DNA of 64,000 bases, from positions 44,035-108,034 of the forward strand of contig QZKH01000006.1 of assembly GCA_003598025.1 (NCBI GenBank), read 5' to 3'. Below, in pieces: positions 2-48,726 of the stretch. The stretch's first letter is position 1, and each line of letters starts with the position of its first letter. Made by a program: the position numbers and the translations under genes. This stretch comes from Candidatus Omnitrophota bacterium. Its GTDB lineage: Bacteria; Omnitrophota; Gorgyraeia; Gygaellales; Profunditerraquicolaceae. The notes under the pieces are model-generated. The model ran no database searches and had not been told where the DNA came from. It saw only the letters and a list, made by a program, of their open reading frames with translations.

Positions 2-1984
2 TTGCGGAGCCTGCTAAAGTTTAAGGCTTCATCACAAGTGCCGATTGAGAAAGTCGAGCCCGTTAGTGAGATTGTTAGGCGTTTTGTTACCGGAGCAATG
101 AGTTTCGGCTCTATAAGCCGTTCCACCCATGAAACGATAGCAATAGCTATGAACAGGCTCAAAGGGAAATCTAATACCGGAGAAGGCGGAGAAGACCCTG
201 TGAGATTTATTCCTCTGCCTGATGGGGATTCGCGCAGAAGCGCTATAAAACAGGTCGCTTCCGGTAGGTTTGGGGTAACGACGAATTATCTGATTAATGC
301 CGATGAATTACAGATTAAGATTGCCCAGGGTGCAAAGCCTGGAGAGGGAGGGCAGCTGCCAGGGCATAAGGTCAGCGCAATAATTGCGAAGACACGTTAT
401 ACCACTCCGGGAGTCACTTTAATATCGCCTCCTCCTCATCACGATATATATTCTATAGAAGACCTGGCACAATTAATATTCGACTTGAAGAATGCTAATC
501 CAAATGCCCGCATAAGTGTAAAGCTGGTCTCAGAAATAGGAGTAGGCACAATTGCAGCAGGGGTGGCTAAGGGACATGCTGATATGATTCTCATTTCCGG
601 AGGCGATGGAGGCACAGGAGCGTCTCCTCTAAGTTCTATAAAGCATGCTGGCCTTCCGTGGGAATTAGGCCTTTCTGAAACACATCAGACATTGGTGCTT
701 AATGATTTAAGAAGCCGCCTCAGGCTTCAGACTGATGGCCAGATGCGCACAGGAAGAGATTTGGCTATCGCAGCTATTTTAGGTGCTGAAGAATTTGGTT
801 TTTGTACTTCTGCGCTAATAGTCTTAGGATGTGTTATGCTCAGGCATTGCCATCTGAACAATTGTTCGGTAGGAGTGGCTACTCAGGATGAGATTCTGGA
901 AAAGCGGTTTAACGGAAGGCCTGAATATCTGGTTAATTATTTTACTTTCGTTGCTGAAGAGCTGCGCCAGATTATGAGCGGTTTAGGCGTATATAGGATT
1001 GACGAAATGATAGGCAGGACTGAATTGCTTGAGGCAGATAAGGGGATTATCCCCTGGAAAGCAAAAGGCATAGATCTATCGAAAATCCTCTATAAGCCAA
1101 AAACAGAGATGGACTCTTCGATAAGATGTACGATGGCGCAGGATCACGGGATAGATAATATATTAGATTTAGAGCTGATAAAGCTCGCTGAAGAAGCACT
1201 CACCAGGCAGAAGCCGGTTTCCGCTGAATTGCCGATCCATAATTTTAACAGGACTACCGGAGCTATGTTGAGCGGCCAGGTTTGTAAGCGTTATGGCGAT
1301 TCCGGATTGCCTGAAGATACAATAAATTTCGCATTTAAAGGTACAGCCGGCCAAAGTTTCGGGGCATTTCTTGCCAGAGGTATTACTTTTAAACTTGAAG
1401 GCATGGCTAATGATTATGTAGGCAAAGGTATTTTTGGCGGAAAGATAATCATTTATCCGGATAGAACTGTAACTTATGATGCCGGCAGTAATATTATTAT
1501 CGGAAATACCACTTTTTACGGAGCAATAAACGGTCAGGCATACATAAGAGGGATTGCCGGAGAAAGATTCTGTATAAGGAATTCCGGGCTCAGTGCTGTT
1601 GTTGAGGGTGTAGGCGACCATGGTTGTGAGTATATGACCGGAGGCATTGTTGTCGTATTGGGCAGGACAGGGATGAATTTCGCTGCGGGTATGTCTGGAG
1701 GAATCGCATATATTTACGATGATAATGTTGAATTCAAGGATAAATGCAATATGAGTATGGTAGAGCTTGAGACGCCGGGGCAGGATGACCTTGAAACAAT
1801 ATCAAAACTGCTTAATAACCACTACAGATATACGCAGAGCCCGGTTGCCAGGGGAATAATGGATGATTTTAAAAAGAAATCAAAAAATTTCATCAAGGTA
1901 ATGCCGATTGAATATAAGCGGATAATAACAGAAGAAAAAGTAATAGAGAAGAAACTTAATTTGCTTGAGGTATCCGATGGGTGA
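2..1984 (+). CDS. gltB: Glutamate synthase large subunit, C-terminal part. The FMN-binding domain and the GXGXG domain are present; the 5' end lies before the window.
   Basis: The [15 protein letters not shown]-domain motif and the C-terminal GXGXG beta-helix region ([21 protein letters not shown]) are present. The ORF runs off the window start. It overlaps the downstream gltD start by 20 nt. Confidence 0.9.
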
Positions 1985-3419
1985 TATAAAAGGTTTTCTA
2001 AAAGTAGGCAGGAAAAGTCTTGAATACAGGCCGGTCTGCGAAAGAGTCAAAGATTACCGCGAGGTATCTTTGCCTAAAAAAGAAAATGTTTCCCGGGAAC
2101 AAGCCAGCCGTTGTATGGACTGCGGCGTTCCTTTCTGCCAATGGGGTTGCCCGATAGGCAATCTTATCCCGGAGTGGAATGATTTGGTTTTTCACGGGCA
2201 TTGGGAAAAGGCATTAAATTTATTGAGGGCTACTAATAATCTGCCTGAAGTAACAGGGAGGATTTGCCCTGCGCCATGTGAATATTCATGCGTTTTGGGG
2301 ATTAACGATGACCCCGTAACTATACGCGATAACGAACTGGCAATTATCGAGTATGGATTTAAAAAAAACCTGGTAAATCCCAATCCGCCCAGAAAAAGAA
2401 CAGGTAAGAATGTAGCTATTGTTGGTTCGGGACCAAGCGGCCTTGCCTGCGCAGATCAGTTAAACCAGGCCGGGCACAGTGTTTTTGTCTTTGAAAAGGA
2501 CGATAAAGCCGGCGGGATAATGCGTTACGGCATACCGGACTTCAAATTGGATAAAAGCGTACTGGATCGCAGGATTAAAATACTGCAGGAAGAGGGGGTT
2601 ACTTTTATTACCGGTATAAATGTAGGCAGCATGAATAACAATAAATATATTAATAAAGATTTTGATGCTGTTTGCCTGGCTTGCGGAAGCAGGGTTCCCA
2701 GGGATCTGAATATAGAAGGAAGGGAGTTATCGGGTATATATTTTGCCATGGATTATCTGGTACAGGCAAATAGGGTAAATGCGGGTTACAGAATTGAAGA
2801 TTCTAAGGTTATTTCTGCTAAAGGTAAGCGCGTAGTCGTCATTGGCGGAGGAGACACCGGGGCTGATTGTGTAGGCGTGGCAAATAGGCAGGGAGCAAAT
2901 TGCATAATACAAATTGAGGTTATGCCTGAGCCGCCGGCTTGCCGCGATTCAGAGATGCCCTGGCCAAAATATCCTTTGTTATTGCGCACATCTACCAGCC
3001 ACCAGGAGGGAGGCGAAAGGAAGTGGGCTATTCTTACCAAGAAATTTATTGGGCAGGACAAAAAGGTAAGAAAATTATCCTGTGTTAAAGTTGAATTTAC
3101 TAAAGACAGCAGGCATTGCAATGTAATGAAAGAAGTCCCCGGCTCAAGTTTTGAGATAGAAGCAGATCTTGTTATTTTAGCTTTAGGGTTTCTGCACCCC
3201 GAAAAAAACGGGTTGGTTAAAAGCCTGGGGTTAGCTTTAGATGAGAGGCAGAATATCAAAACCGATAGTCAATATATGACTTCATCTAAAGGTATTTTTT
3301 GCGCCGGAGATATGCGCAGGGGTCAATCGTTGATTGTATGGGCTATATCAGAAGGAAGAAGAGCTGCATATTGTATAGATAAGTTTTTAATGGGCCAGAG
3401 CGAGTTGCCGATTATTTAG
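1965..3419 (+). CDS. gltD: Glutamate synthase small subunit (NADPH-dependent, FAD/Fe-S).
   Basis: N-terminal Cys cluster [14 protein letters not shown], Rossmann motif [14 protein letters not shown] and C-terminal FCAGD motif, all typical of GltD. Confidence 0.9.
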
Positions 3420-3431
3420 ATCTAATTAGAG

Positions 3432-3504
3432 GTTAGTTCATAGTTCATTGTTCATAGAATATGCCATATCCATAAACCATCAACTATGAACCATGAACTA
3501 ATAT
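3432..3504. repeat. GTTCAT/ATGAAC palindromic intergenic element (family 1), copy A.
   Basis: gttcatagttcattgttcatag...ccatatccataaaccatcaactatgaaccatgaactaatat. The core is shared almost identically with the copies at 22333-22477 and 62195-62273. Confidence 0.8.
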
Positions 3505-3541
3505 TCCTTGCCATTTCCCCATATTTATGTAAAATTTACTC

Positions 3542-4075
3542 ATGCCTGTTATTAAATTAAAACCCGTCAAAGTAAGCCGCAAATTATTTAAGCTGCTAGA
3601 ACGCCGCAAACTAATAAAGACATTCTCGCCATCTAATAAGGTGTTAAATGTCAAACCCGGGCATGGTTATGTCGATACGGTATACGCTTGCTCTGAGGAA
3701 TATGGCCCGCATAAATTGATCTGCGTTGGTTTGAATTCCAGTAAAATCAGGCTGGCTTCGCATCCGGATAAAGAAGATTTTATTCTTATTAATAATATCC
3801 GGAAGTCAAAACCTTTATATATTGTGATAGGCTTGTATAAGCATGATATCATTCAGAATAAGGTTAAATCAGGTAAATTAACCGCTAAAGATTTCATTAT
3901 GTTAAATATCAAGCACAATGATATCCATACCTGTGTTTTTACCATGCTCGAAGGGACTGTGCATTGGGAAGCTACGACTAAGGGAAGGGGCAATTCTCCG
4001 TTTTTCTTTGTAACTGAACCCGCCAGACTAAGAATGGATTTCATAGACTTGTGCGAGTATAAGGTGGAGATATAA
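3542..4075 (+). CDS. Hypothetical protein, 177 aa, AT-rich orphan ORF with no recognisable domain.
   Basis: Clean ORF, but no Shine-Dalgarno-like motif (AAGGAG/GGAGG-type) was seen upstream of the ATG. Composition is AT-rich relative to neighbours. It is bracketed on both sides by GTTCAT-type repeat elements (3432-3504 and 4089-4327). Confidence 0.45.
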   Translation: MPVIKLKPVKVSRKLFKLLERRKLIKTFSPSNKVLNVKPGHGYVDTVYACSEEYGPHKLICVGLNSSKIRLASHPDKEDFILINNIRKSKPLYIVIGLYKHDIIQNKVKSGKLTAKDFIMLNIKHNDIHTCVFTMLEGTVHWEATTKGRGNSPFFFVTEPARLRMDFIDLCEYKVEI

Positions 4076-4088
4076 TATTGGTTCATGG

Positions 4089-4327
4089 TTCATAGAATAT
4101 GGAGAGTAGCTAGTCACAAAGACACAAGGACGCAAGGACACAAAGCCACAAGAAAAGCATAGTTTAATCGTTGATTCGTTTAATAGTTTATTCGTTAATC
4201 TAGGCTTCTTCGGTTCAACGAGTCAACTAGTCAACGGGTAAACGAATAAGAAGAAATAGGTTCTTAAGATCGTTATAAAGACACCTTACGCACTACGCTA
4301 TACGCAATACGAACTGTGAACTAATAT
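4089..4327. repeat. Composite element. A family-1 arm and a family-2 CACAAGGACA repeat (4122-4166) are interrupted by a nested approx 105-nt inverted-repeat insertion (4170-4276) and then resume (4277-4327) with ...CGCTATACGCAATACGAACTGTGAACTAATAT.
   Basis: Family-2 halves match 42784-42860 and 48772-48850. The inserted segment has its own arms (ttattcgttaat ... aaacgaataag). Confidence 0.7.
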
Positions 4328-4330
4328 CCC

Positions 4331-4358
4331 TTGACACTTTAATTTTTTAAGATAATAT
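4331..4358 (+). promoter_or_regulatory. Candidate sigma70-type promoter (TTGACA-16-TAATAT) for the gltB-paralog gene, leaving a approx 165-nt leader.
   Basis: cccTTGACActttaattttttaagaTAATATcat immediately after the repeat terminus gaactaatat. Confidence 0.4.
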
Positions 4359-4523
4359 CATTATAAGTATTTGAAGTGGCCTTAAGAAGCGAAGTTGCTT
4401 TATTAGGTCTAAGACAAAGACGTCCGCAAATATAAAGGGAGGTCTTTTTTATTTTTTTGGCCTTAGTTGCATAACATATAGGCAACATCTGCCTATAATA
4501 TAGTCAGAGAAAGGAGAATAGCT

Positions 4524-6110
4524 ATGAATCTAAGGACTCCTGGCGGAAATGATGCCAGCAGAACGTTTAATCGTTCCAAAAATGTAGTGCCTTGTTCCGG
4601 ATTATGTTCAAGGTGTCTTGAGTCATGCAGGGGTAATTGCGAGGTCTTCAAGTCTTCTTTTAGAGGCAGGGAAGTTATATATCCAGGGCCTTTTGGGGAG
4701 GTAACAGCCGGAGGCGATAAGGATTACCCGGTTGATTATTCACATATTAACATACATGGCTATGCCCAGGGAGCAAAAGGTTTACCCAAGGGTGTTAGCG
4801 CAGGCCCTGATACGGCAATATTCCCGGCAGTAGATACTCAGACCGAATACGGCTGGGATAAAAAAGTAAAAATGAAGGCGCCTATTTTTACCGGCGCTTT
4901 AGGTTCAACTGAAATCGCCCGTAAAAATTGGGAGCATTTTGCGATTGGCGCTGCTATTTCAGGCGTAACAATTGTATGCGGCGAGAACGTTTGCGGGATT
5001 GACCCTAAACTGGAGTTAGACAGCAAAGGAAAGGTCGCAAGCGCCCCTGATATGGACAGGAGAATAGAAGTCTATAAGAGATTTCATGACGGCTATGGCG
5101 AAATTCTAGTGCAGATGAACGTTGAGGATACAAGGCTTGGAGTCGCTGAATATGTACACAAAAAACATAAGCTTGATACCATTGAATTAAAATGGGGGCA
5201 GGGTGCTAAGTGTATCGGCGGTGAAATAAAAGTTAAAAGCCTTGAAAGAGCGTTAGAATTAAAGAAAAGAGGTTATATAGTCACCCCTGATCCTACGATA
5301 AAGGCGAATCAGGAAGCTTTTAAAGCCGGGGCAATCAAAGAGTTTGAAAGGCATTCGCGCCTCGGATTTGTTTCAGAGGAAGCCTTTATGAAGGAAGTCA
5401 AGCGTTTAAGGGATATAGGTTTTAAGAGAGTTACATTAAAAACAGGCGCTTATTCCATGGTTGAGCTTGCCCAGGCAATAAAGTTTTCTTCGCAGGCCAA
5501 AATCGACCTTTTGACTATCGATGGAGCCCCCGGCGGCACAGGTATGAGCCCATGGAGGATGATGCAGGAGTGGGGTATACCTACATTCTATCTGCAGGCT
5601 TTAGCTTATGAATTCTGCGAGAAGCTGGCTAAAAAGAAAAAGAGAGTTCCGGATATAGCTATTGCCGGAGGATTCGCTTTAGAAGACCATGTCTTTAAGG
5701 CTATAGCAATGGGCGCTCCTTATGTAAAAGCAGTATGCATGGGAAGGGCGCTTATGATACCCGGATTCGTTGGGAAAAACATAACAGAATGGATTAAAGG
5801 TAATACTTTACCGCCCACGGTGTCTGAATTCGGAAAAACCCCCGAGGAAATCTTTGTCTGTTATGAAGAGCTCTCCGAAAAATATGGCAATGATATGAAA
5901 GATATCCCGTTAGGAGCAGTTGCCATCTACACTTTCTCGCAACGTATAAAAGTAGGTCTTCAGCAGCTTATGGCAGGCTCGCGGAACTTTAACTTGAGTA
6001 CGATCTCAAGGAAGGATTTAATGAGTTTGACAAAGGAAGCTGAAGAGGTTAGCGGCATTCCTTATGTTATGGATGCTTATAGGAAAGAAGCAGAGAAAAT
6101 ATTAGCATAA
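4524..6110 (+). CDS. Standalone glutamate-synthase-family FMN-domain protein with a Cys-rich N-terminus (probable Fe-S site).
   Basis: LTIDGAPGGTGMSP matches the GltS FMN-domain signature ([12 protein letters not shown]). N-terminal CSGLCSRCLESCRGNC Cys cluster. Strong RBS AAAGGAGAA upstream of the ATG. Confidence 0.75.
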   Translation: MNLRTPGGNDASRTFNRSKNVVPCSGLCSRCLESCRGNCEVFKSSFRGREVIYPGPFGEVTAGGDKDYPVDYSHINIHGYAQGAKGLPKGVSAGPDTAIFPAVDTQTEYGWDKKVKMKAPIFTGALGSTEIARKNWEHFAIGAAISGVTIVCGENVCGIDPKLELDSKGKVASAPDMDRRIEVYKRFHDGYGEILVQMNVEDTRLGVAEYVHKKHKLDTIELKWGQGAKCIGGEIKVKSLERALELKKRGYIVTPDPTIKANQEAFKAGAIKEFERHSRLGFVSEEAFMKEVKRLRDIGFKRVTLKTGAYSMVELAQAIKFSSQAKIDLLTIDGAPGGTGMSPWRMMQEWGIPTFYLQALAYEFCEKLAKKKKRVPDIAIAGGFALEDHVFKAIAMGAPYVKAVCMGRALMIPGFVGKNITEWIKGNTLPPTVSEFGKTPEEIFVCYEELSEKYGNDMKDIPLGAVAIYTFSQRIKVGLQQLMAGSRNFNLSTISRKDLMSLTKEAEEVSGIPYVMDAYRKEAEKILA

Positions 6111-6287: not shown

Positions 6288-8237
6288 ATGGATAAGCATG
6301 CCGCCATAGATAATTTCCTTAGAAATCTCAGGATGGTCCTTAATAATGCTTTTATGTATAATAAGGAACATCCTTATTTTCTTAAATCAGTAGATTTGTT
6401 TAAAGGCAGCCTGGATGCCTTGTTTTCTTTAATCTCCCCCCTGAAAATCGGATTTACTCCTTCCTCGCTGTTTATCGGAAGCGAACATTTAGAAAGCCAG
6501 CCTTTGTATGAAGAAATAGCCAGAATATTCCATAACCGTAAGATTAAGAGCATCGAGATAAAAGATAATGTTACCACGGAAGAATTGGTTGATTTTCTCT
6601 CTACGGTAACCATGCCTGTCAGGGATTTGATCCAGCAAGGTAACATAAGGGCAATCTTTAATAAAGCAAAATTCCCTGATTTTCTAGTCGAAGAACTCGA
6701 TTATTCCATATTTTTAAGCGAGCAAGGAAGCGAACTTAAGGACCTATGGGGCAGCTTCTTGAGGGAAGCCGTTGTTAATAACGATTCGGACAGGATAGCA
6801 GACCTATCCGATAACTTCGGTACTGTCGTAAGAAAACTGAGCAGTAAGGATTTCTTAGATGACCAGCGGCTGCAAGCAGACGTAAAAGATTTCCTTAAGC
6901 ATCTTAAGGAATCACAAAGGGATAAATTTTATCAGTGCTCAAAAGAGATATTCAAATGGGCTATGAATAATAAACATAATCTGGATAATGAGCAGCTTGA
7001 TAAGATGAAAGCCATGCTTAAAGAGCTTGAAGACAGTGAGTTTGCCCGTCTTTTTTCGGAAGAGATACTTGAAGACGATAAGTTTGATCTTTTAAGTTTC
7101 CAGCTTTTCTCCAGGTTTATAGTAGAAGGCAGGCATAATAATGTAAGCAACCATTTAGCTAACGACAAGGCATTAAAAGACAACCTTAAGGACAGCCTTT
7201 CCGTTAAGAACAAGGTAAAAGAGCTGCTCTCTGCCCCTGAGGCGGAGATGGGTACCTCTAAAATTTTTCACAACACGCTCAAAATTTTGCTTACAAACAT
7301 AACTTATGAAGAAGGCATTTATTTCGACAGGAAACTATTAGAGGTAAATTATCGTTTTGTGCTAGTATCGATTTTTAGCACGGAAGAGGAGATGGGTAAA
7401 TTAAAGATTGTCGCCAATAGGTTGTCTCAGGTAGTCGAGCATGATAAGCAGGACATGGATCTTGATTGGTTGGTCACGGTGCTTGAGGCAATCAACGCTA
7501 AAAAGAAAAACTTTAGCCGAGGTTATAAAGAATTCTCGGATTTAGAAAAAAGATTAGCTAACTTTGTTGAGACGATGTTTTGGCAGGGCAGCATTTCTTT
7601 ACAGATGCAGAAATTAGTTGATTCTCTGGAAGTAACATCCATGGATTCCCATTTTTACTTAGAAAAGATGTTCGTCTATGGCCAAATAAATCAAAATGCC
7701 ATTAAGCTCTTCCTCAGGTTCTTTCCTTCAGATATCGCAATCTTTTATAAGAATATACAAGACAATGCTTATAAGACTGAAATGATGGCTGTGTTAACCG
7801 AGGCATTAAAAGGGCTAAAACACCATCTCGTTTTGGATATCTTAAAGACCATTTATAGCACCCCCAACCAATTCTTAAAAATTGAGGCTCTCAGGGCCAT
7901 GGCGGATAATAAAATAATTGACCAGGCATTCCTCTTAAATGTGATATCAGGGCAGGATATTACTTTGAAAAAAGGGGCTGTATATGCGCTGCTTAACGAA
8001 TCTGAAAGCCTTAAAAAGGCAATAGCTATTCTTTTAGATATCCCCAGCCCATTTGGGATAAGAAATCATATTATTATTGAAAACCTGCAGATTGTTGATG
8101 AGCTTATTTTGAGAGAAGCAATCAACAGCGTTATCGGGCTAAGCAACAGGAGATTTTTCTGGAATAAGGCGCTGAGAGAAAAGGCAGCTCAAACCCTAAG
8201 GAAATTAAATGTTAGAACAGGTAGAGAAGGCATTTAA
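6288..8237 (+). CDS. Hypothetical 649-aa protein. The N-terminus resembles the DUF3391-type domain found in front of HD-GYP domains; the C-terminal third has HEAT/PBS-like helical repeats; there is no catalytic domain.
   Basis: The N-terminal approx 110 aa align position-by-position with the N-terminus of the downstream HD-GYP protein (F..L...L..A..Y...H..F..SVD..Y.SL pattern). C-terminal EALRAMADNK / AVYALLNES repeats. Confidence 0.5.
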   Translation: MDKHAAIDNFLRNLRMVLNNAFMYNKEHPYFLKSVDLFKGSLDALFSLISPLKIGFTPSSLFIGSEHLESQPLYEEIARIFHNRKIKSIEIKDNVTTEELVDFLSTVTMPVRDLIQQGNIRAIFNKAKFPDFLVEELDYSIFLSEQGSELKDLWGSFLREAVVNNDSDRIADLSDNFGTVVRKLSSKDFLDDQRLQADVKDFLKHLKESQRDKFYQCSKEIFKWAMNNKHNLDNEQLDKMKAMLKELEDSEFARLFSEEILEDDKFDLLSFQLFSRFIVEGRHNNVSNHLANDKALKDNLKDSLSVKNKVKELLSAPEAEMGTSKIFHNTLKILLTNITYEEGIYFDRKLLEVNYRFVLVSIFSTEEEMGKLKIVANRLSQVVEHDKQDMDLDWLVTVLEAINAKKKNFSRGYKEFSDLEKRLANFVETMFWQGSISLQMQKLVDSLEVTSMDSHFYLEKMFVYGQINQNAIKLFLRFFPSDIAIFYKNIQDNAYKTEMMAVLTEALKGLKHHLVLDILKTIYSTPNQFLKIEALRAMADNKIIDQAFLLNVISGQDITLKKGAVYALLNESESLKKAIAILLDIPSPFGIRNHIIIENLQIVDELILREAINSVIGLSNRRFFWNKALREKAAQTLRKLNVRTGREGI

Positions 8238-9543
8238 AGATTTACTGGCATCTTTGCAATTGGCTAAATTATACGGGATCCAGCATAAGATATTTAGAGA
8301 TTCTGTGGATAAAGCCTATTTAAGCCTGGCTAAGGCGCTGGAAGGAAGAAGCGAACTGGTTATAGGCATTATTGGCGAAGAGCTGGCTTTTGAAAAAGAG
8401 ATACTATTTGGATTAAGCAAGGCTATAGGCCCGGCAGTGGGTTATTTAAAGAACTTGGGTATTGAAAGGATATCATTCGGGAGCAATGTTCAGAAGGATG
8501 AACTTGAGAAATTCATTGAATTTTTGGCTTCCAAAAAAGATACTGCTATAGACCAGCAGGGGTTAGATTTCGGGTCTTTAGGCATAAGGAACATTGTCAT
8601 CGGGAAACTCACCGTTCTTGGTAAAGACAAAGTTGATGAGTTAGGCATAAAGGCCGTAGATTATATGAATATATACGGTTCGGCTGCTGATATGGCGCAT
8701 AAGTCTTTTTCTTCCATGCTTGAAGGAGAGGCGCTTGATGCCTTGGCGGTAAAGTTAGCGCTTAATAATATATTAGAGAACCTGGCAGTTTATCATAATG
8801 AATTTTTCAAGATTGTAGCCTTACGCCGGCATGACCCTCAGACGCACATACACCTTATTAATGTTGCGACAATAGCAATGTACTTTGCCTCCAGGCTTGG
8901 TTTTAGCAAGGCTGATATACTGGACATCGGGATGTCCGGATTATTCCATGATATCGGCAAACTCTATATCTCCCACGGGATACTTACTAAAACAGATAAG
9001 CTTACCAATGAGGAATTTGCAAAAATAAAGAGCCATACTATATTTGGCGCAGAAATTTTATTGGAACATATAGAATCACTGGGGATACTGCCTGCAGTTG
9101 TTTCTTTTGAGCACCATCTTAAGTACGATATGACAGGTTATCCCAGAGTTAACTATTCCCGCAGGCCCCATATAGCCTCTTTGATTGTTTCTATATGCGA
9201 TGTTTATGATGCTTTATTTTCAAGAAGGACATATAAAGAGGATTATTCGCCGGAAAACGTCTATAATATAATGATTAAGGATAAAAATACTGCTTTTGAA
9301 CCGCGCCTTGTAGAGAGATTTTTTAAAATAATGGGTGTTTGGTATATAGGCTGTGTGGTTTCCCTGAGCGATGGCAGGATTGCCGTAGTCCGGGAGCAGA
9401 ATGAAGACGATATCAGGAGGCCAAAAGTAGAGGTAGTTTTCCCTAAAGATAGAAAAGAATTTATTGATCTGAAAGAGAACTCATCGCTTGAGATAAAGCG
9501 CAGCCTTAATCCCTGGACGGAAGCCAGGGATTATGTGTCTTAG
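8209..9543 (+). CDS. HD-GYP domain phosphodiesterase (c-di-GMP family) with a DUF3391-like N-terminal domain.
   Basis: HDIGK metal-binding motif and HHLKYDMTGYPR (HD-GYP signature). Overlaps the upstream ORF by 29 nt in another frame. Confidence 0.8.
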   Translation: MLEQVEKAFKDLLASLQLAKLYGIQHKIFRDSVDKAYLSLAKALEGRSELVIGIIGEELAFEKEILFGLSKAIGPAVGYLKNLGIERISFGSNVQKDELEKFIEFLASKKDTAIDQQGLDFGSLGIRNIVIGKLTVLGKDKVDELGIKAVDYMNIYGSAADMAHKSFSSMLEGEALDALAVKLALNNILENLAVYHNEFFKIVALRRHDPQTHIHLINVATIAMYFASRLGFSKADILDIGMSGLFHDIGKLYISHGILTKTDKLTNEEFAKIKSHTIFGAEILLEHIESLGILPAVVSFEHHLKYDMTGYPRVNYSRRPHIASLIVSICDVYDALFSRRTYKEDYSPENVYNIMIKDKNTAFEPRLVERFFKIMGVWYIGCVVSLSDGRIAVVREQNEDDIRRPKVEVVFPKDRKEFIDLKENSSLEIKRSLNPWTEARDYVS

Positions 9544-9545
9544 TC

Positions 9546-9620
9546 CATAGTTCACAGATCACGGTTCACAGAAATATTTATCCATTCCCGTGAACTGTGC
9601 ACAGTGAACTATGAACCAAT
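9546..9620. repeat. Family-1 element, GTTCAC/GTGAAC variant, copy C.
   Basis: catagttcacagatcacggttcacag...cccgtgaactgtgcacagtgaactatgaacc. Left GTTCAC units mirrored by right GTGAAC units. Confidence 0.75.
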
Positions 9621-9631
9621 ACTTATTCCCA

Positions 9632-11482: not shown

Positions 11483-13006
11483 ATGAAAAAAATAGGATTT
11501 GATAACGATAAATACCTTAAAGAGCAGACCGAAGCCATATTAAAAAGGGTAAATAAATTCGGGAGTAAGCTTTATCTGGAATTCGGCGGAAAACTCTGTT
11601 TTGATTATCACGCTGCAAGGGTCCTTCCCGGCTATGATCCAAACGTAAAACTCATGCTGCTTCAACAGCTTAAAGATAACGCGGATATTGTATTATGTAT
11701 TTATGCCGGGGATATAGAAAAGGGCCGCGTAAGAGGAGATTTCGGCATAACCTATGATGCCGCAACTTTTAAACTTATAGATGACCTGAGAAAGTGGGGC
11801 TTAGATATATTATCGGTTGTTATCACAAGGTATTCCAACCAACCCACAGCTGATATATTTAAAAATAAGCTGGAACGCAGAGGGGTAAAAGTTTACTTGC
11901 ATTATCCTATTCCGGGGTATCCGGCTGATGTAGATTTAATCGTTAGTGAAAATGGCCTGGGCAGAAATGATTATATCGAATCAAAAAAGCCGATTGTCGT
12001 AGTTACCGGACCTGGGCCGGGCAGCGGGAAACTGGCAACCTGCCTATCTCAATTATATCAAGAGCATAGAAAAGGCATCAGCGCAGGTTACGCTAAATTC
12101 GAGACTTTCCCCATTTGGAACCTGCCGCTTAAGCACGCCGTAAATGTTGCTTATGAGGCAGCGACCGCGGATATACAGGATTTTAATCTGGTCGATCCTT
12201 TCCACCTCAGTATTTATAAGGAAGCCGCCATAAATTATAATCGTGACGTTGAAAGCTTCCCGATATTGAAACTGATATTGAACAAGATATTAGATAAGGC
12301 GATAGATACCCCGATGTATAATTCCCCTACTGATATGGGCGTTAATCGCGCAGGGTTCGGGATTATAGACGATCAAGTGGTGCAGGAGGCAGCTAAGCAG
12401 GAATTAATACGCAGGTATTTCAGATACAACGCAGAATATGTTTTGGGAATAGAGAAAAAAGAAACGGTAAACAGGGTGTCGCTTCTTCTGGAAGAGTTGG
12501 GGGTTAAGCTTACTGATAGAGCCGTTGTTGAGGCTTCGCGGAGGGCATCGGAAGAAGCCGAAGCAAAAGGCAAAGGTAACAACGGGATTTTCTGCGGCGC
12601 GGCAATAGAGCTGGATGACGGCAGGATTATAACTGGCAAGAGCTCCAGGCTTATGAATGCTTCAGGAAGCCTTGTTTTAAATGCGGTAAAGGCTTTAGCA
12701 AGTATCCCTGATGAGATATTATTGCTTTCACCACACATTATCAAACAGATTTCTATTTTAAAAGAAAGCTGTTTAAAGATAGAGCCGGACCCGTTAGATC
12801 TGGAGGAGATATTAATAGCTTTATCAATAAGCGCGACTACTAATCATACAGCCGAAATAGCTATGAAGAAATTAAGCGAATTAAGAAATACGGAGGTACA
12901 TTTGACGCATATGCCTTCTCCCGGGGATGAGGTAGGGCTTAAAAGGCTTGGCGTGAACATGACTACCGACGGAAATTTTTCTTCGAGGAATTTATTTGTG
13001 AGTTGA
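11483..13006 (+). CDS. DUF1846 (UPF0371) family protein, function unknown.
   Basis: 507-aa ORF whose N-terminus ([23 protein letters not shown]..) and length match my recollection of the UPF0371 family. Sits between pyrG and carA. Confidence 0.55.
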
Positions 13007-13008
13007 TT

Positions 13009-14109
13009 ATGAGCACAGCTATATTAGCATTAGAGGACGGGAAAGTTTTTAAGGGTATTTCTTTCGGAGCAACGGGAGAAACCTATGGTGAGGTTGTATT
13101 TAATACCAGCATGAGCGGCTACCAGGAGATATTGACTGACCCTTCCTATAAAGGTCAGATAGTCGCAATGACCTATCCTTTAATCGGCAATTATGGTGTT
13201 AACAAAGAAGATGTAGAATCACGCAGGCCATTTGTGGAAGGGTTTGTTGTCAGAGAGGTAAGTAAGATATCCAGTAATTGGAGAGCAGAAGAATCTCTGG
13301 ATAGCTATCTTAACAGAAATAAAATATTGGGTATTGAGGGCATTGATACAAGAGAATTGACTTTGCACATAAGGGAGAAAGGCGAGCTCAAAGCCGTTAT
13401 ATCTACTTTAGACCTGGATGAGAGAAACCTTGTAAATAAAGCAAAAGATTCTTTGGGCTTGATAGGAAGGGATTTAGTTAAGGATGTAATAGGCGATGAT
13501 ACTTATGTATGGAATAAAAATGGTAAGTTAAAAATAGCTGTTTTAGATTGCGGGGTCAAGCTGAACATACTCAGGATTTTGGCAAATCACGGCTGCAGTG
13601 TTATGGTCGTACCTGCATCTTTGCCCGCAGATAAGATACTGGCTTTGGGGCCCGATGGGATATTGTTATCCAACGGGCCAGGAGACCCTGCGGCATTACC
13701 GTATGTTGTTGATACCACGAGGGAACTTATCGGTAAGCTGCCAATTTTCGGTATTTGCCTGGGCCATCAGATCCTCGGGCAGGCATTAGGCGGCAAGACA
13801 TTTAAGCTTAAATTCGGCCATCACGGCGCAAACCACCCGGTAAAAGACCTAAGGACAAAAAAAGTGGCAATAACCGTGCAGAATCATGGTTTTTGCGTAG
13901 ATATAGATACTTTGAATAAGAAAGAAATAGAACTGACCCATATCAATCTTAACGATAATACTTTGGAAGGCATGAAGCATAAGAAGCTGCCTTTGTTCTC
14001 CGTACAGTTCCATCCTGAAGCTTCCCCGGGACCGCATGATGCCAGTTATTTATTCAATGATTTTGTGGACTCAGTTAAGACAGCCAAAAAGAGACGTTCA
14101 AAGAAATAA
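13009..14109 (+). CDS. carA: Carbamoyl-phosphate synthase small (glutaminase) subunit.
   Basis: [11 protein letters not shown]...[12 protein letters not shown]-terminus. Class I GATase motifs GICLGHQ and HGANHPV near the C-terminus. ATG at 13009 chosen over TTG at 13003. Confidence 0.9.
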
Positions 14110-14118
14110 CATTGACCG

Positions 14119-15780
14119 ATGCCTAAAAGAAAAGATATAAAGAAAATACTGATTATAGGCTCCGGGCCTATCGTAATCGGCCAGGCATGTGAATTTGATT
14201 ATTCGGGCAGCCAGGCATGCAAAGTGTTAAGGCAGGATGGTTTTAAAGTCGTACTGATAAATTCTAATCCTGCAACTATAATGACTGACCCTCAGCTTGC
14301 CGATAGCACTTATATCGAGCCGATAACAACAGCTTCTTTGGAAAAGATTATTGCCAAAGAAAAACCTGATGCTCTTCTGCCGACTCTGGGAGGCCAGACC
14401 GCTTTAAATGCAGCCGTAGCCTTGCATGAGAAGGGGATACTAAACAAATATAAAGTTGAAGTTATAGGCGCCGATATCAGGGCGATAAGAAAAGGCGAGG
14501 ACAGGAAGCTTTTTAAGGAGGCCATGAAAAAGATAGGGCTGGACCTGCCGAGAAGCGGACAGGCCTACAGCCTTAAAGAAGCTAATAAAGTTGTAAAGGA
14601 TATAGGTTTTCCTGTTATCATCAGGCCTAGTTTTACACTCGGTGGCACAGGGGGAAGTGTAGCTTTTAATATTGAAGAATTCCAGGAAATGGCAAAGAGC
14701 GGACTCGAATCTAGCTTGATCAGTGAGATCTTGATTGAGGAATCTGTTGTGGGATGGAAAGAATATGAGTTGGAGGTTATGAGGGACTCAAAAGACAATG
14801 TGGTAGTAATATGTTCTATTGAGAACCTTGACCCTATGGGTGTACATACGGGCGACAGCATTACCGTTGCCCCGATCCAGACATTAACGGATAAAGAATA
14901 CCAAAAGATGCGTGATGCTGCTATTGCTTGTATAAGGGAGATAGGAGTATCAACAGGCGGTTCCAATATACAATTCGCAGTGAACCCGCAAAATGGCAGG
15001 ATGGTTGTGATTGAAATGAATCCCCGTGTATCAAGGAGTTCAGCCTTGGCATCTAAAGCCACAGGTTTTCCAATAGCAAAAATAGCTGCAAAGCTGGCGG
15101 TTGGGTATGCCCTGGATGAGATCGCCAATGATATTACAAAAGAAACTCCGGCTTGTTTTGAGCCGACGATAGATTATTGTGTTGTAAAGGTGCCGCGTTT
15201 CACATTTGAAAAATTCCCTTCTTCTGATGCCTCCTTAACGGTGTCTATGAAATCCGTCGGCGAAGCGATGTCGATAGGCAGGACTTTTAAAGAAGCATTG
15301 CAGAAAGGCCTGCGTTCCTTAGAGATAAAAAAATACGGCTTAGAGACGATTGTTTTTAAAAAGCCTCAAGAGGCGTCCGCAGATAATGGTATTATGGACT
15401 TAATAAACAGCAAGCTTATGACCCCCAATGCTGAAAGGATATTTTATATCGGCGATGCTTTGAGAATTGGCATAAGCATTGACAGGATCTTTGAGCTCAC
15501 AAGAATTGACAGATGGTTTTTGCAGAATATAAAAGAAATCATAGATTTAGAAAAACAAATAATAAGCAGTAAAGATAGCATCACAGAGGAATTAATGCTG
15601 GCGGCAAAGCAATTCGGCTTCAGCGATAGGCAGTTAGCGGTTCTTTTAGGCAAGAGGGAAGACGAAATCAAGCAGCTGCGTTCTTCATTGGGTATAGGGC
15701 CTTCTTTTAAGCTTGTGGATACATGTGCTGCCGAATTCAAAGCGTTTACCCCTTACTATTATTCTTCTTATGATAAGTAA
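14119..15780 (+). CDS. carB: Carbamoyl-phosphate synthase large subunit, N-terminal half only (carboxyphosphate plus oligomerisation domains). This is a split carB.
   Basis: [27 protein letters not shown]-terminus. The ORF terminates (..YYSSYDK) at the point where single-chain CarB continues into the second synthetase domain. The next gene is unrelated. Confidence 0.85.
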
Positions 15781-22286: not shown

Positions 22287-22332
22287 GAAAGAATAATAAC
22301 AGAGGAAGAGGATAGTTGCAATAAATTTTATT

Positions 22333-22477
22333 AGTTCATAGATAATAGTTCATAGATATGAGCGATTCATAATAGTTAACCAGGACCAAGTGTTATAACC
22401 AGAAGCCCGTATCAATGAACAATGAACCATCAACTATGAACTAATAACTATGATCTATGAACTAATAACTATGAACC
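22333..22477. repeat. Family-1 element, copy D (long; in the divergent promoter region between the Gfo/lpxB operon and the msbA-like gene).
   Basis: gttcatagataatagttcatagatatgag...cccgtatcaatgaacaatgaaccatcaactatgaactaataactatgatctatgaactaataactatgaacc. Confidence 0.8.
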
Positions 22478-22539
22478 AATTTATCTATTGCCCTTCTCCA
22501 AAACCTATGCTAAAATCAGCTTTTCGAAAGGAATAAAAG

Positions 22540-27403: not shown

Positions 27404-27476
27404 GGGCCACTAGCTCATCCGGTAGAGCACCACCCTTTTAAGGTGGGTGTGCCGCGTTCGAGTCGCGGGTGGCTCA
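27404..27476 (+). tRNA. tRNA-Lys (anticodon UUU), no encoded CCA.
   Basis: Manual cloverleaf fold. Acceptor GGGCCAC/GTGGCTC (one G-U pair); D-arm GCTC-ATCCGGTA-GAGC; anticodon stem CCACC/GGTGG with loop CTTTTAA; T-arm CCGCG-TTCGAGT-CGCGG. Confidence 0.85.
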
Positions 27477-27675
27477 CGAATTCGCTGAAAGCGAATGAGT
27501 TCCGAGGCTCCTTCTTTGAGATTCAGAGACGAGGCAGTACAAAAAATCGAGTCCCGAGAACCCGTTGTTCTTACAATTTGGTGCGAGGGGAAAATAGATA
27601 CGGCATATCGTTTATTGCAGATAGATATAATTAATGACCGATAAGCGATAAGCTATAGGCGATATGCGAGATTAC

Positions 27676-27757
27676 GCGGACGTGGCGGAACTGGCATACG
27701 CGTATGGCTTAGGACCATATGGGGTAACCCTTGGGGGTTCAACTCCCTCCGTCCGCA
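27676..27757 (+). tRNA. tRNA-Leu (anticodon UAG), type II with long variable arm.
   Basis: Acceptor GCGGACG/CGTCCGC is perfect. Anticodon stem TATGG/CCATA with loop CTTAGGA. Variable hairpin GGGG-TAA-CCC. T-arm GGGGG-TTCAACT-CCCTC. Confidence 0.8.
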
Positions 27758-27792
27758 TATTTTGGATAAAGACTTTTTTTAAACTGAATCAC

Positions 27793-27865
<73 letters not shown>

Positions 27866-37232: not shown

Positions 37233-37260
37233 TAAATTTCTGCTTTCGCAGAAATTTACA
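37233..37260 (+). terminator. Perfect 12-bp hairpin right after the aldolase stop. There is no U-tract, so this is a terminator-like or RNA-processing structure.
   Basis: gtaaatttctgc-tttc-gcagaaatttac. Confidence 0.3.
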
Positions 37261-37341
37261 GTTCATAGTTCATAGTTGATGGTTCATGGCTGATAGAATG
37301 ATATATCTATGATCTATGAACTATGATCTATGAACTAATAT
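37261..37341. repeat. Family-1 element, copy E (core in inverted orientation), ending directly at the ilvD RBS.
   Basis: gttcatagttcatagttgatggttcatgg is the reverse complement of the ccatgaaccatcaactatgaac core. Ends ...ctatgatctatgaactaatat followed by aaggagacgatATG. Confidence 0.8.
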
Positions 37342-37352
37342 AAGGAGACGAT

Positions 37353-39005
37353 ATGCGTTCAGACAAGATAAAAAAAGGAATTGAGAGAATTCCTCACCGA
37401 GCGCTTTTACACGCAACCGGATTATCCCGTAGGGATTTTGATAAGCCATTTATCGGAGTGGCCACGTCTTTTACAGATTTAATCCCTGGGCATATCGGTA
37501 TGCGTGATTTAGAGCGGTATATCGAGCGCGGGGTTTGTTACGGCGGAGGTGTCCCGTTTTTCTTTGGCGTTCCTGGTATATGTGACGGTATTGCTATGGG
37601 GCACCTAGGCATGTGCTATCCTTTAGCGCTCCGGGAAATTATTGCCGATACAATCGAAACTGTCTGTAATGCGCACAGCCTAGATGGGTTAATTTGTTTA
37701 ACTAACTGCGATAAAATCACTCCCGGTATGCTTATGGGTATCGCCCGCCTGAATATCCCGGCGATAATAGTTACCGCAGGCCCGATGATGTCAGGCCGCT
37801 ATAATAAAAGGAAGCTTGCTTTTGTCCACGATACGTTTGAGGCGGTAGCAAAGGCAAAAAAGGGCCAAATTGGCAGCGAAGAATTAGTTTGCCTTGAAAT
37901 GGAAGCCTGCCCCGGTGCCGGCTCATGCCAGGGATTATATACTGCAAACACAATGGCATGCCTTACGGAGACTATGGGTATGTCACTGCCCGGATGCGGG
38001 ACTGCTTTGGCAGTTTCCGCGAAAAAACGCAGGATCGCCCAGGCAAGCGGAGAGCGTATAGTGGAATTAGTCAGGAAAGATATTAAGCCGCGTGATATAA
38101 TTACAAAGAGGTCAATTGAGAACGCAATTGCTGTAGATATGGCTTTGGGCGGTTCAAGTAATACTGTCCTGCATATAATGGCTATTGCCCATGAGGCAGG
38201 ATTAGCTTTTAATTTAAAGAGTTTTGACGAGATCAGCAGGAAAGTCCCCCATATAACCAATCTTGAGCCGGCAGGGGAGCATTTTATGGAAGACCTTGAA
38301 TATGCCGGAGGCATACCTGCAGTATTAAAGAGATTGAAATCTAAATTGCATAATTGCCCGACTCTATCCGGCAAGAGTACATTTGATATCGCGGATGACG
38401 CTGTTATTTTTGACGATAGCGTTATCAGGAAATCCGATAATGCTTACCATAAGGAAGGCGGCATCGCAGTTCTGTTCGGTAACCTTGCGCCGAATGGCGC
38501 AGTCGTAAAACAGGCGGCAGTGAGTGTAAAGATGATGAAATTCACCGGACGTGCCAGGGTATTTAACCGTGAAGAAGAGGCTATGAAGGCGATCCTTGGC
38601 GGCCAGATTAAAGGCGGCAGCGTAGTCGTTATCCGCTATGAAGGCCCGGCAGGCGGACCGGGAATGCGCGAGATGCTTGCTCCTACTGCAGCTATTGTAG
38701 GGGGCGGTTTGTCTGATTCAGTCGCTTTAATTACGGATGGAAGATTTTCCGGAGGCACAAAAGGGCCGTGCATTGGTCATGTTTCTCCTGAAGCCAGCGC
38801 AGGCGGGCCCATTGCAGTCATTCAAGACGGAGATATAATTACGATTGATATTCCAAACAGAAAGCTGGAAGTAAAATTAAGCGATGCAGAAATAAAAAAG
38901 AGATTAAAGAATGTAAAGATAGTCCCTCCAAAGATTACAACCGGGTATTTATCAAGATATTCCCGGCTGGTTACTTCGGCGGATAAGGGTGCAATTTTAA
39001 GTTGA
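37353..39005 (+). CDS. ilvD: Dihydroxy-acid dehydratase.
   Basis: CDGIAMGH and [10 protein letters not shown] motifs. C-terminal SGGTKG...HVSPEA. RBS AAGGAGA. Confidence 0.9.
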
Positions 39006-39072
39006 TAATCAGCAGTATAATACTGTGTACAGCGGACTGCTGATTATAAGTTTTTTAACGGAGTGAAGGTAA

Positions 39073-40737
39073 ATGACCGGAGCAGAGATATTAATTGAGT
39101 GTCTAAAGAGAGAAGGCGTGGATGTGATGTTTGGCTATCCGGGTGGCCAGATACTGCCTACATTTGATAAACTTTATGATTCTGACCTGAAGCTTATACT
39201 TGTGCGCCACGAGCAGGGCGCAGCGCATGCTGCCGATGGTTATGCCCGTGCAACCGGAAAGCCCGGAGTTTGCCTTGCTACGAGCGGTCCGGGTGCGACA
39301 AATCTTATTACGGGTATTGCAACTGCCTACATGGATTCAGTCCCTATGATAGCGATTACCGGACAGGTAAAATCTCATTTAATCGGAAACGATGCTTTTC
39401 AGGAAGCGGATGTTACAGGCATTACTCGGCCGATAACTAAGCATAATTACCTGGTTAAGGATGTCAAGGAGCTGGCGCAGATTATACGGGAAGCGTTTTA
39501 TATCGCGACTTCCGGTAGGCCGGGGCCTGTGTTGATAGATATACCCAGCGATGTGCAGATTGCCGAAACAGAATTTATCTGGCCTGAAAAAGTGGATATG
39601 CGCAGTTATAAGCCTACATATTTCGGCCACCCCGGGCAAATCAAAAAAGCAACTAAGCTTGTTGCTTTAGCTAAGCGTCCGCTGTTATATATAGGCGGAG
39701 GAATAATCATCAGCCAGGCCAGTAACGTATTGAGGGAATTTGCAGAGAAGACCAGAATACCGGTTACCTGGACGCTGATGGGCATAGGAGGTTTTCCGTC
39801 CAGCCATGAACTTTCTCTGGGGATGCTTGGTATGCATGGGACAGCTTACGCAAACCATGCCATAATGGAAGCAGATTTGATAATTGCCGTGGGTGCGCGT
39901 TTTGATGATAGAGTGACCGGCAGGCTTGATGCCTTTGCCCCAAAAGCAAAAATAATCCATATTGATATAGACCCTTCTTCTATAAGCAAGAACGTCCATG
40001 TTGATATACCTATTGTCGGAGACGCAAAAAATATTTTAGGGGAATTCCTGGAACAGATGAAGAAATTCCCCGATACTTCTGATTGGCTTGAGATGATAAG
40101 TTCCTGGAAAAAGAAGCATCCTTTAAGGTATAAAATGGAAGGCAAAATCAAGCCTCAATATGTCATTGAGCAGCTGTGCGAAGCCACAAAAGGAGAAGCA
40201 GTTATCGTTACCGAAGTCGGGCAGAACCAGATGTGGGCAGCACAGTGGTACAAATATAATCATCCGCGGACATTTATCTCAAGCGGCGGATTAGGTACGA
40301 TGGGTTTTGGTTTTCCAGCAGCTATGGGCGCTAAAGTCGGCTGCCCTGATAAAGTGGTTGTCGATATTGCCGGAGACGGCTCTATACAAATGAATATTCA
40401 AGAACTGGCTACTTGTATTTGTAATAATATAAATGTTAAAATATTTATATTGAATAATGGTTATCTTGGCATGGTGCGCCAATGGCAGGAGCTTTTTTAT
40501 AAAAAGCGGTATTCTCATACTTGTATTTCCGGGCCGGATTTTGTCAAACTGGCAGAAAGTTTCGGGGCTGTAGGGATAAGGGTTACCAAGAATGAAGATG
40601 TCCGTCCTGCAATCGAGAAGGCGCTTTCTACCGATAATACCGTGCTTATTGATTTTCAGATAGAGCAGGAAGAGAATGTCTTTCCTATGGTTCCAGCCGG
40701 AGAGGCATTAAACAGGATGATAGAAGGGCTGGCGTAA
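39073..40737 (+). CDS. ilvB: Acetolactate synthase large subunit (TPP-dependent).
   Basis: [26 protein letters not shown]-terminus. TPP-binding GDGS...NN motif ([16 protein letters not shown]...LNNGYLGMV). Confidence 0.9.
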
Positions 40738-40746
40738 TTAGAGGAC

Positions 40747-40824
40747 AGTTCACAGTTGACAGTGCATAGCTTCTTGTTAGTTTTGCTTAGCCTGTGAACT
40801 GTAAACTGTGCACCGTGAACTAAA
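40747..40824. repeat. Family-1 element, copy F, occupying the whole ilvB-ilvN intergenic space and abutting the ilvN ATG.
   Basis: cagttcacagttgacagtgcatagc...cctgtgaactgtaaactgtgcaccgtgaactaaa then ATG at 40825. Confidence 0.75.
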
Positions 40825-41298
40825 ATGAAACATACAATCTCACTACTCGTTGAAAACAAATTCGGGGTACTGGCACGCATCGCCGGGCTATTTAGTGCCA
40901 GGGGGTATAATATTTCATCTTTGGCAGTTTCTCAAACATTGGATCCATCTGTTTCCTATATGACAATAGTAGTCGATGCTAAGGATGAGAATGTGCTGGA
41001 GCAGATAAAAAAGCAGTTGAATAAATTGATTGATGTGATTGTTGTTACTGATTTCACAAAGAAAGACCATGTTGAACGCGAGATGATACTGGTTAAAGTC
41101 GAATATTCTGCCAAAAACAAACACAAACTTGAAACAACGCTTAAGAAATACGTTTCAAAGATAATCAAGTATAAATCAAATACCGCTATAATTGAAGCAG
41201 CCGGAGAGGAAGAGCAGATAAAAAAGCTTCTTTCTGAGCTTCAGGATTTCGGGATTAAGGAATTAGTCAGGACGGGGAAATTAGCAATTGGGTATTAA
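40825..41298 (+). CDS. ilvN: Acetolactate synthase small (regulatory, ACT-domain) subunit.
   Basis: HTISLLVENKFGVLARIAGLFSARGYNISSL is the canonical IlvH/IlvN ACT domain. Confidence 0.85.
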   Translation: MKHTISLLVENKFGVLARIAGLFSARGYNISSLAVSQTLDPSVSYMTIVVDAKDENVLEQIKKQLNKLIDVIVVTDFTKKDHVEREMILVKVEYSAKNKHKLETTLKKYVSKIIKYKSNTAIIEAAGEEEQIKKLLSELQDFGIKELVRTGKLAIGY

Positions 41299-41316
41299 TT
41301 TATAAAGGAGGGAGCA

Positions 41317-42309: not shown

Positions 42310-42869
42310 GTCACAGGATAATGGTAAGAAGAAAATTAATAGTGCTGGTTTTGATTATTAATGTGTTGGTTTTTACGCGCGCCTATGGGCAGGATATTAG
42401 TTTTGGCGCCGAGGCTACAAAACCGGAAACCGAAAGTAATTTTTTCAAAATAAGCGAGATAAAAAGAGGTAACTTTGGCCCGGGGCAGTATTCGACCGAG
42501 GGTTTTGTTGTCAGAGTTTATACTTGCCCAGACTGTCCTGCCGGTGCTGTTTGTAAGCCGTGCATGAAGGATAATATTGTGATCTCTGAGAATAACCAGG
42601 AGCTTAAGGATTATTCCGGCTTGACTAACAGCGAGTTGATAATCTTCACTAATCATGTGACTGAATTCGAGATTGGCAGCAGTTATAAATTTTTAATAAA
42701 TATAACCAATAATAAATCTACATTAGAAAACATCAACGATATTGAGTTGGTAAGTTTTAGCGAGATAGTTGATAGAAAAGTGGGTCACAAAGACACAAGG
42801 ACACAAAGTCACAAGAACGCTATACTCAATACGCACTACGCTATACGCAATACGTTCAGTGAACAATGA
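42294..42869 (+). CDS. Hypothetical secreted/lipo-protein. The C-terminal approx 30 aa and the stop are encoded by a repeat element.
   Basis: Signal-peptide-like [20 protein letters not shown] near the N-terminus (true start possibly 42321). Tail ..[29 protein letters not shown] is a read-through of the CACAAGGACA / CGCTATACGCAATACG repeat. Confidence 0.4.
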
Positions 42870-48696: not shown

Positions 48697-48726
48697 ACGG
48701 GTAGAGCAGAGTGGTATAATTTTATT

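Follow-up and report, generated by a model that had tools for sequence, protein, structure and literature searches.

A conserved gene of predicted cupin fold between gltD and a glutamate synthase paralog in a Candidatus Omnitrophota genome with REP-like hairpin repeats

The closest structural counterparts of the gene discussed here are two cupin proteins, the ureidoglycolate lyase AllA (PF04115; structures 1XSQ, 1YQC and 2BDR) and DUF4867 (SftX/SqvB; structures 9GYY and 9GYZ), a cupin metalloprotein related to AllA, the ligands of which in 9GYY are His99, Glu103 and His150 (PMC11968277). With respect to the repeats that flank the gene, repetitive extragenic palindromic (REP) sequences and bacterial interspersed mosaic elements (BIMEs) on the one side, and miniature inverted-repeat transposable elements (MITEs) and composite transposons on the other side, are the systems to be compared. 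The gene itself, here called T, is an open reading frame (ORF) within a window of 64 kb, the whole stretch of Candidatus Omnitrophota DNA that was analysed (contig QZKH01000006.1), and a first-pass annotation of the DNA had correctly placed it between gltD, encoding the small subunit of glutamate synthase, and a paralog of GltB that retains only the flavin mononucleotide (FMN) domain (Table 1). While that annotation described T as a small orphan mobilised or captured by repeat elements, possibly with a toxin, immunity or defence function, T is best described as an ordinary native gene of a cupin family. Specifically, T is considered, with a probability of roughly 0.6, a native, functional gene of this genome, which encodes a small cytoplasmic metallo-cupin and possesses its own transcription unit.

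The gene, its family and its predicted fold

T is a real, conserved gene. The NCBI protein 'hypothetical protein C4533_05465 [Candidatus Omnitrophota bacterium]', from a metagenome-assembled genome, matches its product at 100% identity, and the designation as orphan does not hold, since 12 full-length homologs with 37-54% identity were found and a search of 1.84 billion representatives with the T profile recovered 160 clusters (at 50% identity), 141 of them with E <= 1e-10 and nearly all with a length of ~180 amino acids. The family spans at least eight phyla, and a scan of the GTDB species genomes with a 13-sequence T alignment identified 57 loci, in Omnitrophota, Elusimicrobiota, Planctomycetota, Verrucomicrobiota, Kiritimatiellia, Chloroflexota, Bacteroidales, Desulfobacter, Clostridia and others. 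As the alignment of the homologs begins at residue 1 of T, the ATG at 3542 is the right start. In 96 diverse sequences H74, E78 and F133 are invariant, and at least 90% share H57, H141, E143, D117, Y48, G55, F155, V157 and E159, the last three being positions of the FFVTEP stretch in T. Searches of Pfam, NCBIfam, PADLOC and the PDB sequences with T and the family alignments gave nothing significant, and Pfam and NCBIfam were equally without a match for the 96 relatives, in agreement with the first-pass annotation, which had recognised no domain. The family, uncharacterised and widely distributed, lacks a name in any database. The 5' part of T contains an imperfect 22-nt direct repeat (3571-3619, 77%), which encodes the basic stretches RKLFKL and RRKLIK.

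Structure prediction, suggested as a check in the first-pass annotation, gave a confident cupin model. The AlphaFold2 model, computed with the family alignment, is mostly beta (predicted local distance difference test, pLDDT, 87.8; predicted template modelling score, pTM, 0.84). A Foldseek comparison with the PDB retrieved E. coli AllA at the top (1xsq/1yqc; E ~3e-3, probability 1.00), with whole-chain matches to 1xsq_B and 1yqc_A at template modelling (TM) scores of 0.49-0.56 (best pair 0.51/0.56). The third-best structural match, next after AllA, is DUF4867 (9gyy), and the rest of the list consists mostly of cupins, that is double-stranded beta-helix proteins such as sugar isomerases, dioxygenases and JmjC-type enzymes. 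Judged by the predominantly beta model and its predominantly cupin matches, the predicted fold of T is a cupin barrel with an architecture like that of AllA and DUF4867. With respect to cupin motif 1 (H-x-H-x3,4-E), the first His is absent from T, and H74-x3-E78 and H141 are conserved in the alignment; no curated cupin sequence family was recovered for T from Pfam, NCBIfam or the PDB sequences.

T resembles AllA in its size (177 versus 160 amino acids), in the single cupin barrel that follows an N-terminal strand-helix segment and in AllA being its best whole-chain structural match. It differs from AllA in that the invariant AllA residues E72, Q79, Y118, W123, D140, N146 and C147 are not those conserved in T, in that the survey of genes around the T-family loci showed no recognisable allantoin genes and in that significant sequence or profile similarity was not found; hhalign of the 96-sequence T alignment versus E. 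coli AllA gave E 0.45. The best local profile alignment, though non-significant, puts H74-P75 of T on the invariant H74-P75 of AllA. T was not assigned to AllA (PF04115), given the missing Pfam match, the non-significant hhalign comparison and the missing allantoin or ureide-gene context. In the case of DUF4867, the H-x3-E...H pattern of the ligands (PMC11968277) is the same as H74-x3-E78...H141 in T, and the location in sugar-utilisation loci is found also for T homologs in Bacteroidales, Opitutaceae and Chloroflexota. On the other hand, the structural overlap is partial (112 columns, TM 0.36/0.30), DUF4867 has 222 amino acids compared to the 177 of T and T was not seen with sulfoquinovose genes. 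Likewise, T was not assigned to DUF4867, the Pfam family of which is not matched. On these grounds, T is filed as a cupin-fold protein and placed in neither of the two families.

Most likely, H74, E78 and H141 together with H57 and E143 constitute a putative divalent-metal site at the centre of the barrel. T would then be a lyase or isomerase that depends on the metal and has a small metabolite of the carbonyl, sugar or ureido type as its substrate. In three proteins, P0047 (512 amino acids), P0096 and P0065, the T-family domain is located C-terminal to a GH5-like (Cellulase, PF00150) domain, a fusion that may indicate, for some lineages, a role related to carbohydrates. T represents a cupin family of moderately large size, not contained in Pfam or NCBIfam, which is, because of its AllA/DUF4867-like predicted fold and its conserved His/Glu site, a reasonable target for curation and enzymology.

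Anatomy and distribution of the flanking repeats

As the first-pass annotation had pointed out, the two flanks of T share a repeated string. The sequence GTTCATAGAATATG occurs exactly twice in the window (3450-3463 and 4088-4101), with the similarity spanning 21 nt (95% identity). Another 32 nt (81%; 3485-3516 / 4308-4339) are likewise shared and include the 19-mer GAACTAATATYCCTTGMCA, which is found twice versus 0.10 occurrences expected, while none of 100 shuffles contained it twice. The short repeat starts 14 nt past the gltD stop codon; it consists of a 31-nt inverted repeat (81% complementary) with period-7 arrays recognised by Tandem Repeats Finder (TRF), and its RNA fold has -20.1 kcal/mol (z = -3.9). 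The long composite repeat starts 3 nt past the stop codon of T and is composed, in order, of a left heptamer arm (4078-4101), TAGAATATGG, (CACAAGGA)n (4115-4152), a nested hairpin (~4159-4250), (TACGCAA)n (4287-4311) and a right heptamer arm (4311-4327). The nested hairpin is built of different tandem 8- and 16-mers (GTTTAATCGTTGATTC / TCAACGAG). In the fold of the long repeat, the outer stem is formed by ~4075-4096 and 4310-4327 (-59.6 kcal/mol, z = -2.5), and the same module order recurs at 48721-48875 and, without the left arm, at 42786-42870. The flanks of T are two separate complete self-folding hairpins; their interpretation as the two ends of one element is ruled out by the folding and by the module order of the other copies. 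The repeats by which the first-pass annotation had seen T bracketed are real, but each flank is self-complementary on its own. A target-site duplication was not distinguishable at the repeats, as the palindrome runs to the element ends.

In the 64 kb, ten copies of the hairpin family are present, all of them intergenic and starting at, or not more than ~15 nt past, the upstream stop codon; after each comes either a promoter-like site or, immediately, the next start codon. The hairpin arms are tandem heptamers (RGTTCAY)n, and arrays of (CACAAGGA)n and (ATACGCA)n occur in addition in the long forms. Exactly the same bracketing as at T is seen at hisG (62358-63251), ilvD-ilvB (37353-40737) and ilvN-ilvC (40825-42309). 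The heptamer signature has a density of 0.36/kb in this window versus 0.003/kb in 1.5 Mb of the relatives' loci (~100-fold), and the hairpin repeats are absent near all T homologs. With Rfam, the window and the interval 3380-4560 yielded only tRNAs and spurious microRNA-type matches on the hairpin, and a literature search for such repeats in Omnitrophota retrieved nothing relevant. In its distribution, the hairpin family is genome-specific and REP-like.

The likeness to REP sequences and BIMEs lies in the multiple, genome-specific and strictly intergenic imperfect palindromes, which are located directly after stop codons, also inside operons such as ilv. Different from REP sequences and BIMEs, the arms are tandem arrays of the heptamer RGTTCAY, the long forms carry octamer and heptamer arrays with nested hairpins and no Rfam family matches. 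To MITEs and composite transposons, the locus is similar in that a repeated sequence is present on both sides of a small gene. The differences are that the flanks of T are complete separate hairpins instead of two element ends, that no transposase is present here (a REP-associated transposase was not sought beyond the window), that core genes are flanked identically in this genome and that T has native codon usage. The elements on the two sides of T are independent members of this REP-like family, which fills most of the longer spacers directly after stop codons and also brackets core genes; its presence is uninformative as to the mobility of T. In this genome, repeats on both sides of a small ORF should therefore not be taken as an indication of mobile cargo, given that most of the longer spacers are filled by the heptamer hairpins, and other findings in the window that rest on the same hairpins are to be read accordingly.

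The AT-richness of T had been taken as a further indication of an insertion. The GC content of T is indeed, with 0.380, below that of the two neighbouring genes (0.437 and 0.441), but not anomalous, being 1.3 SD below the mean of the 52 window genes (0.413, SD 0.025), 10 of which have a GC content of 0.383 or less. The deficit is confined to codon positions 1 (0.412) and 2 (0.311) and is due to the amino acid composition of a protein rich in Lys, Ile and Asn, while the GC content at position 3 (GC3) is 0.424 versus a mean of 0.416 for the window genes. The synonymous-codon log-likelihood of T under the usage of the other genes ranks 23 of 52, so that the codon-usage comparison proposed in the first-pass annotation turned out against a foreign composition. 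The codon usage of T is native and without a compositional sign of foreign origin; foreign composition is ruled out by GC3 and codon likelihood.

Table 1. Features of the gltBD-T-paralog region and copies of the hairpin family (positions in the window)
Feature	Position	Strand	Remarks
gltB, 3' part	2-1984		full gltB of 1513 aa in source contig
gltD, glutamate synthase small subunit	1965-3419	+	Pfam Fer4_20 and Pyr_redox_2
Short hairpin repeat	3433-3501	.	left arm (TAGTTCA)n 3434-3457, right arm (CCATGAA)n 3470-3498
Promoter-like TTGCCA-16 nt-TAAAAT	3508-3535	+	consensus scan, 10/12 matches
ORF T	3542-4075	+	177 aa, ATG start; unnamed conserved family of predicted cupin fold
Long composite repeat	4078-4327	.	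TRF arrays and inverted repeats
Promoter-like TTGACA-16 nt-TAATAT of paralog	4331-4358	+	consensus scan
Terminator-like hairpin AAGACGTCC...GGAGGTCTT with T-run	4417-4458	+	fold; in 5' leader of paralog
GltB FMN-domain paralog	4524-6110	+	528 aa; sole Pfam domain Glu_synthase, 1.8e-18
Further copies of the hairpin family	9537-9622, 22328-22480, 37255-37337, 40745-40821, 42786-42870, 48721-48875, 62194-62270, 63251-63316

Genomic context, expression and alternative readings

The source contig, the context of which was taken from a 20-kb stretch overlapping the window (L063), has the order amtB-glnB-glnA-HTH_8-gltB-gltD-T-paralog and represents a nitrogen-assimilation cluster. T is separated by 122 bp from gltD and by 448 bp from the paralog. 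With respect to its expression, the -10 hexamer of the promoter-like site upstream of T ends 7 nt before the ATG, and no Shine-Dalgarno (SD) sequence was found upstream of T, as already remarked in the first-pass annotation, though a recognisable SD is present at only about half of the mechanically called gene starts of the window. The GAACTAATATYCCTTGMCA block is common to the promoter regions of T and the paralog. Because the -10 box ends so close to the start codon and an SD is absent, the T mRNA would be leaderless, starting from the promoter-like site. T may accordingly constitute its own small transcription unit inside the large nitrogen-assimilation cluster, probably read from this promoter as a leaderless mRNA.

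For the comparison of synteny, 574 metagenome stretches that encode a relative of the paralog were available, of which the best 80 loci (73-91% amino acid identity) were analysed with up to 7 kb on each side, less on short contigs. The first-pass annotation would have abandoned its cargo proposal upon conserved presence of the ORF at this position; T is absent from 80 of 80 loci and its position is lineage-specific. Only in two of the 80 loci does gltD adjoin the paralog. In L072, with the order gltB-gltD-paralog, the 513-bp spacer contains an unrelated ORF of 96 amino acids (6508-6797), and in L064, with the order gltD-...-paralog-649aa-HD-pyrG, the 1.4-kb spacer contains two ORFs on the minus strand (273-686 and 673-1398), while in the other loci the paralog does not adjoin gltBD. 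Conserved across the gltD-paralog spacers are the end of gltD and the promoter and leader of the paralog. The spacer is a variable slot, for which reason the placement of T is lineage-specific; it may be prone to rearrangement. A gain of T here and a loss elsewhere both fit the data.

Throughout the family, the contexts of T are lineage-specific and mostly tight same-strand arrangements. Several Omnitrophota possess DUF502-tolQ-tolR-T-CBM11 protein with 0-bp gaps, and further contexts are gyrA-PHP-folD-T...metH in Elusimicrobiota, sugar ABC permeases followed by T in Chloroflexota and EamA-T-SIS-GH38-like in Bacteroidales and Opitutaceae. T homologs are often translationally coupled to tolR or folD. 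In a Pfam survey of 150 neighbours not more than two genes away, MotA_ExbB, ExbD, TPR, BPD_transp_1, EamA, DsbD_TM, FolD and URO-D were the commonest, and the 25 families most often seen as neighbours include no mobile-element family (transposase, integrase). A search of 47-57 loci for one operon partner conserved throughout did not reveal any. Nitrogen-assimilation genes surround T in three other Omnitrophota genomes: in the case of L058, with the order aminotransferase-glnA-GAF/ANTAR-HycI-like-T-x-GT2-(PyrK-like)-(GltD-like)-gdhA-carA, where, 6 kb downstream, carA and the gene after it share 69-81% identity with the window genes at 13003-15780, and in the case of L011 and L006, with the order SNF transporter-DUF3568-T-(PyrK-like)-(GltD-like)-gdhA, where L011 also has amtB-glnB downstream. 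Because T recurs amid nitrogen genes in these three loci, it is regarded as a native gene in a rearranging nitrogen region, not as imported cargo.

Several observations nevertheless weigh against a native metallo-cupin gene with its own transcription unit. T has no sequence-level link to any cupin family (Pfam; hhalign), with a 26-sequence AllA family profile giving E 0.092 and a probability of 0.6% in hhalign, and DUF4867 has no demonstrated activity (PMC11968277). The number of promoter-like sites in the region, 6 compared to 5.0 in shuffles, is not in excess. With respect to a native origin, the absence of T from the flanks of all 80 related loci has to be considered, and in a neighbour-joining (NJ) tree (constructed without support values) T is not nested in a defined Omnitrophota sub-clade, but lies on a long branch amid the Omnitrophota/Elusimicrobiota sequences; because of this absence and this placement, T may have been transferred within the superphylum. 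The contexts of T are moreover heterogeneous and point to no one pathway. A more specific proposal, namely that T as an undescribed AllA-like metallo-cupin serves Omnitrophota as a nitrogen-scavenging lyase or deaminase-type enzyme, which would act on a ureido, amido or amino-sugar compound and supply ammonia or urea to the glutamine synthetase-glutamate synthase (GS-GOGAT) pathway, perhaps from a leaderless transcript, is put forward as a speculation with low odds. Not a likely alternative either, but one to be taken into account, is a non-catalytic cupin that senses a ligand, binding a metabolite indicative of nitrogen or carbon status and modulating the neighbouring nitrogen-assimilation genes or proteins. 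T is located inside nitrogen-assimilation clusters in four Omnitrophota genomes, sensors and transcription-factor domains exist among cupins (PMC11968277) and the N-terminal LxxLExRGLI of T gives faint matches to winged-helix proteins of the MarR, LexA and TrmB type. These matches are, however, far from significant (E 0.03-1) and the model has a single N-terminal helix and no winged helix, while catalytic metal sites typically have a His/Glu set like the one conserved in T, and nitrogen genes are not near most T homologs.

That T is recently acquired cargo, inserted between gltD and the paralog by or with the flanking repeats, as the first-pass annotation had supposed, would agree with its absence from the relatives' gltD-paralog spacer, the content of which differs between lineages, with the directly repeated sequence on both of its sides, with the closest homolog being only 54% identical and with the long NJ branch. 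Yet GC3 and codon usage are native, the repeats are found in most of the longer spacers and around core biosynthetic genes, each flank is a hairpin complete in itself, no T homolog elsewhere is flanked by such repeats, transposases and integrases are missing from the 25 most frequent neighbour families and the homologs of related Omnitrophota are also located in nitrogen-assimilation regions. Terminal inverted repeats across T, a foreign composition and the same flanks at the homologs were all not observed, and cargo is, all told, an improbable explanation. Still less credit is given to a toxin, immunity or anti-phage defence singleton. In its favour are the small size of T, the missing annotation and the solitary position with a promoter-like site of its own; on the other hand, PADLOC assigned T to 0 families, with one of 13 family members showing a weak match (E 0.0088), and displayed no defence or phage signal, a partner gene is not present, the family occurs across phyla in housekeeping and sugar-utilisation operons and the predicted fold is enzyme-like. 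Mobilisation or capture by the repeats, a foreign origin and a toxin, immunity or defence function find no support in these data. A chance open frame or a decaying pseudogene within an AT-rich spacer, for which the missing SD and the GC content below that of the neighbours could be cited, is effectively refuted already by the set of homologs, which at full length keep the catalytic-type residues, and by the confident structure prediction.

The glutamate synthase paralog, its leader and further features

The promoter and 5' leader of the paralog comprise 4331-4523, such that the terminator-like hairpin in this interval belongs to the paralog and not to T. A comparable CCTTGACA promoter-like sequence is found upstream of the leaders of orthologs, for example in L064. 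In 12 relatives the leader retains the stem AAAGRCGTCC/GGACGYCTTT, which shows covariation in that three of its pairs have changed on both sides. As read by eye in the aligned leaders, a GGAC that lies upstream and is conserved might engage GTCC in an alternative small hairpin with the loop AAAGAC. No Rfam family was identified for the leader, which is a conserved attenuator candidate.

A GAF-ANTAR gene is located directly upstream of the paralog in ~27 of the 80 related loci, which include L075, L076, L078, L085, L086, L090-L093, L097-L103, L105, L107, L108 and L115. Neither in the window nor in the preceding 10 kb was a GAF-ANTAR gene found. The leader is possibly under ANTAR control, in analogy to ANTAR targets. 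In L058, the GAF-ANTAR gene (6396-7115) adjoins glnA and lies two genes upstream of the T homolog.

The paralog has a Cys-rich N-terminus (CSGLCSRCLESCRGNC) and is unusually conserved (73-91% in the best 80 of the 574 stretches), with gltD in the same loci being only ~67-69% identical. Together, the hairpin family and the conserved leader terminator of the paralog are perhaps more interesting than T itself.

Downstream of the paralog, the source contig encodes a 649-amino acid protein, an HD-domain protein, pyrG, DUF1846 and carA. The gene for the 649-amino acid protein (6288-8237), in which no Pfam domain was recognised, overlaps the start of the gene for the HD/HD_5 protein (8209-9543), and this pair is kept after the paralog in L064 with 34% and 53% identity, respectively. 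A cluster of three tRNAs is located at 27404-27865 of the window.

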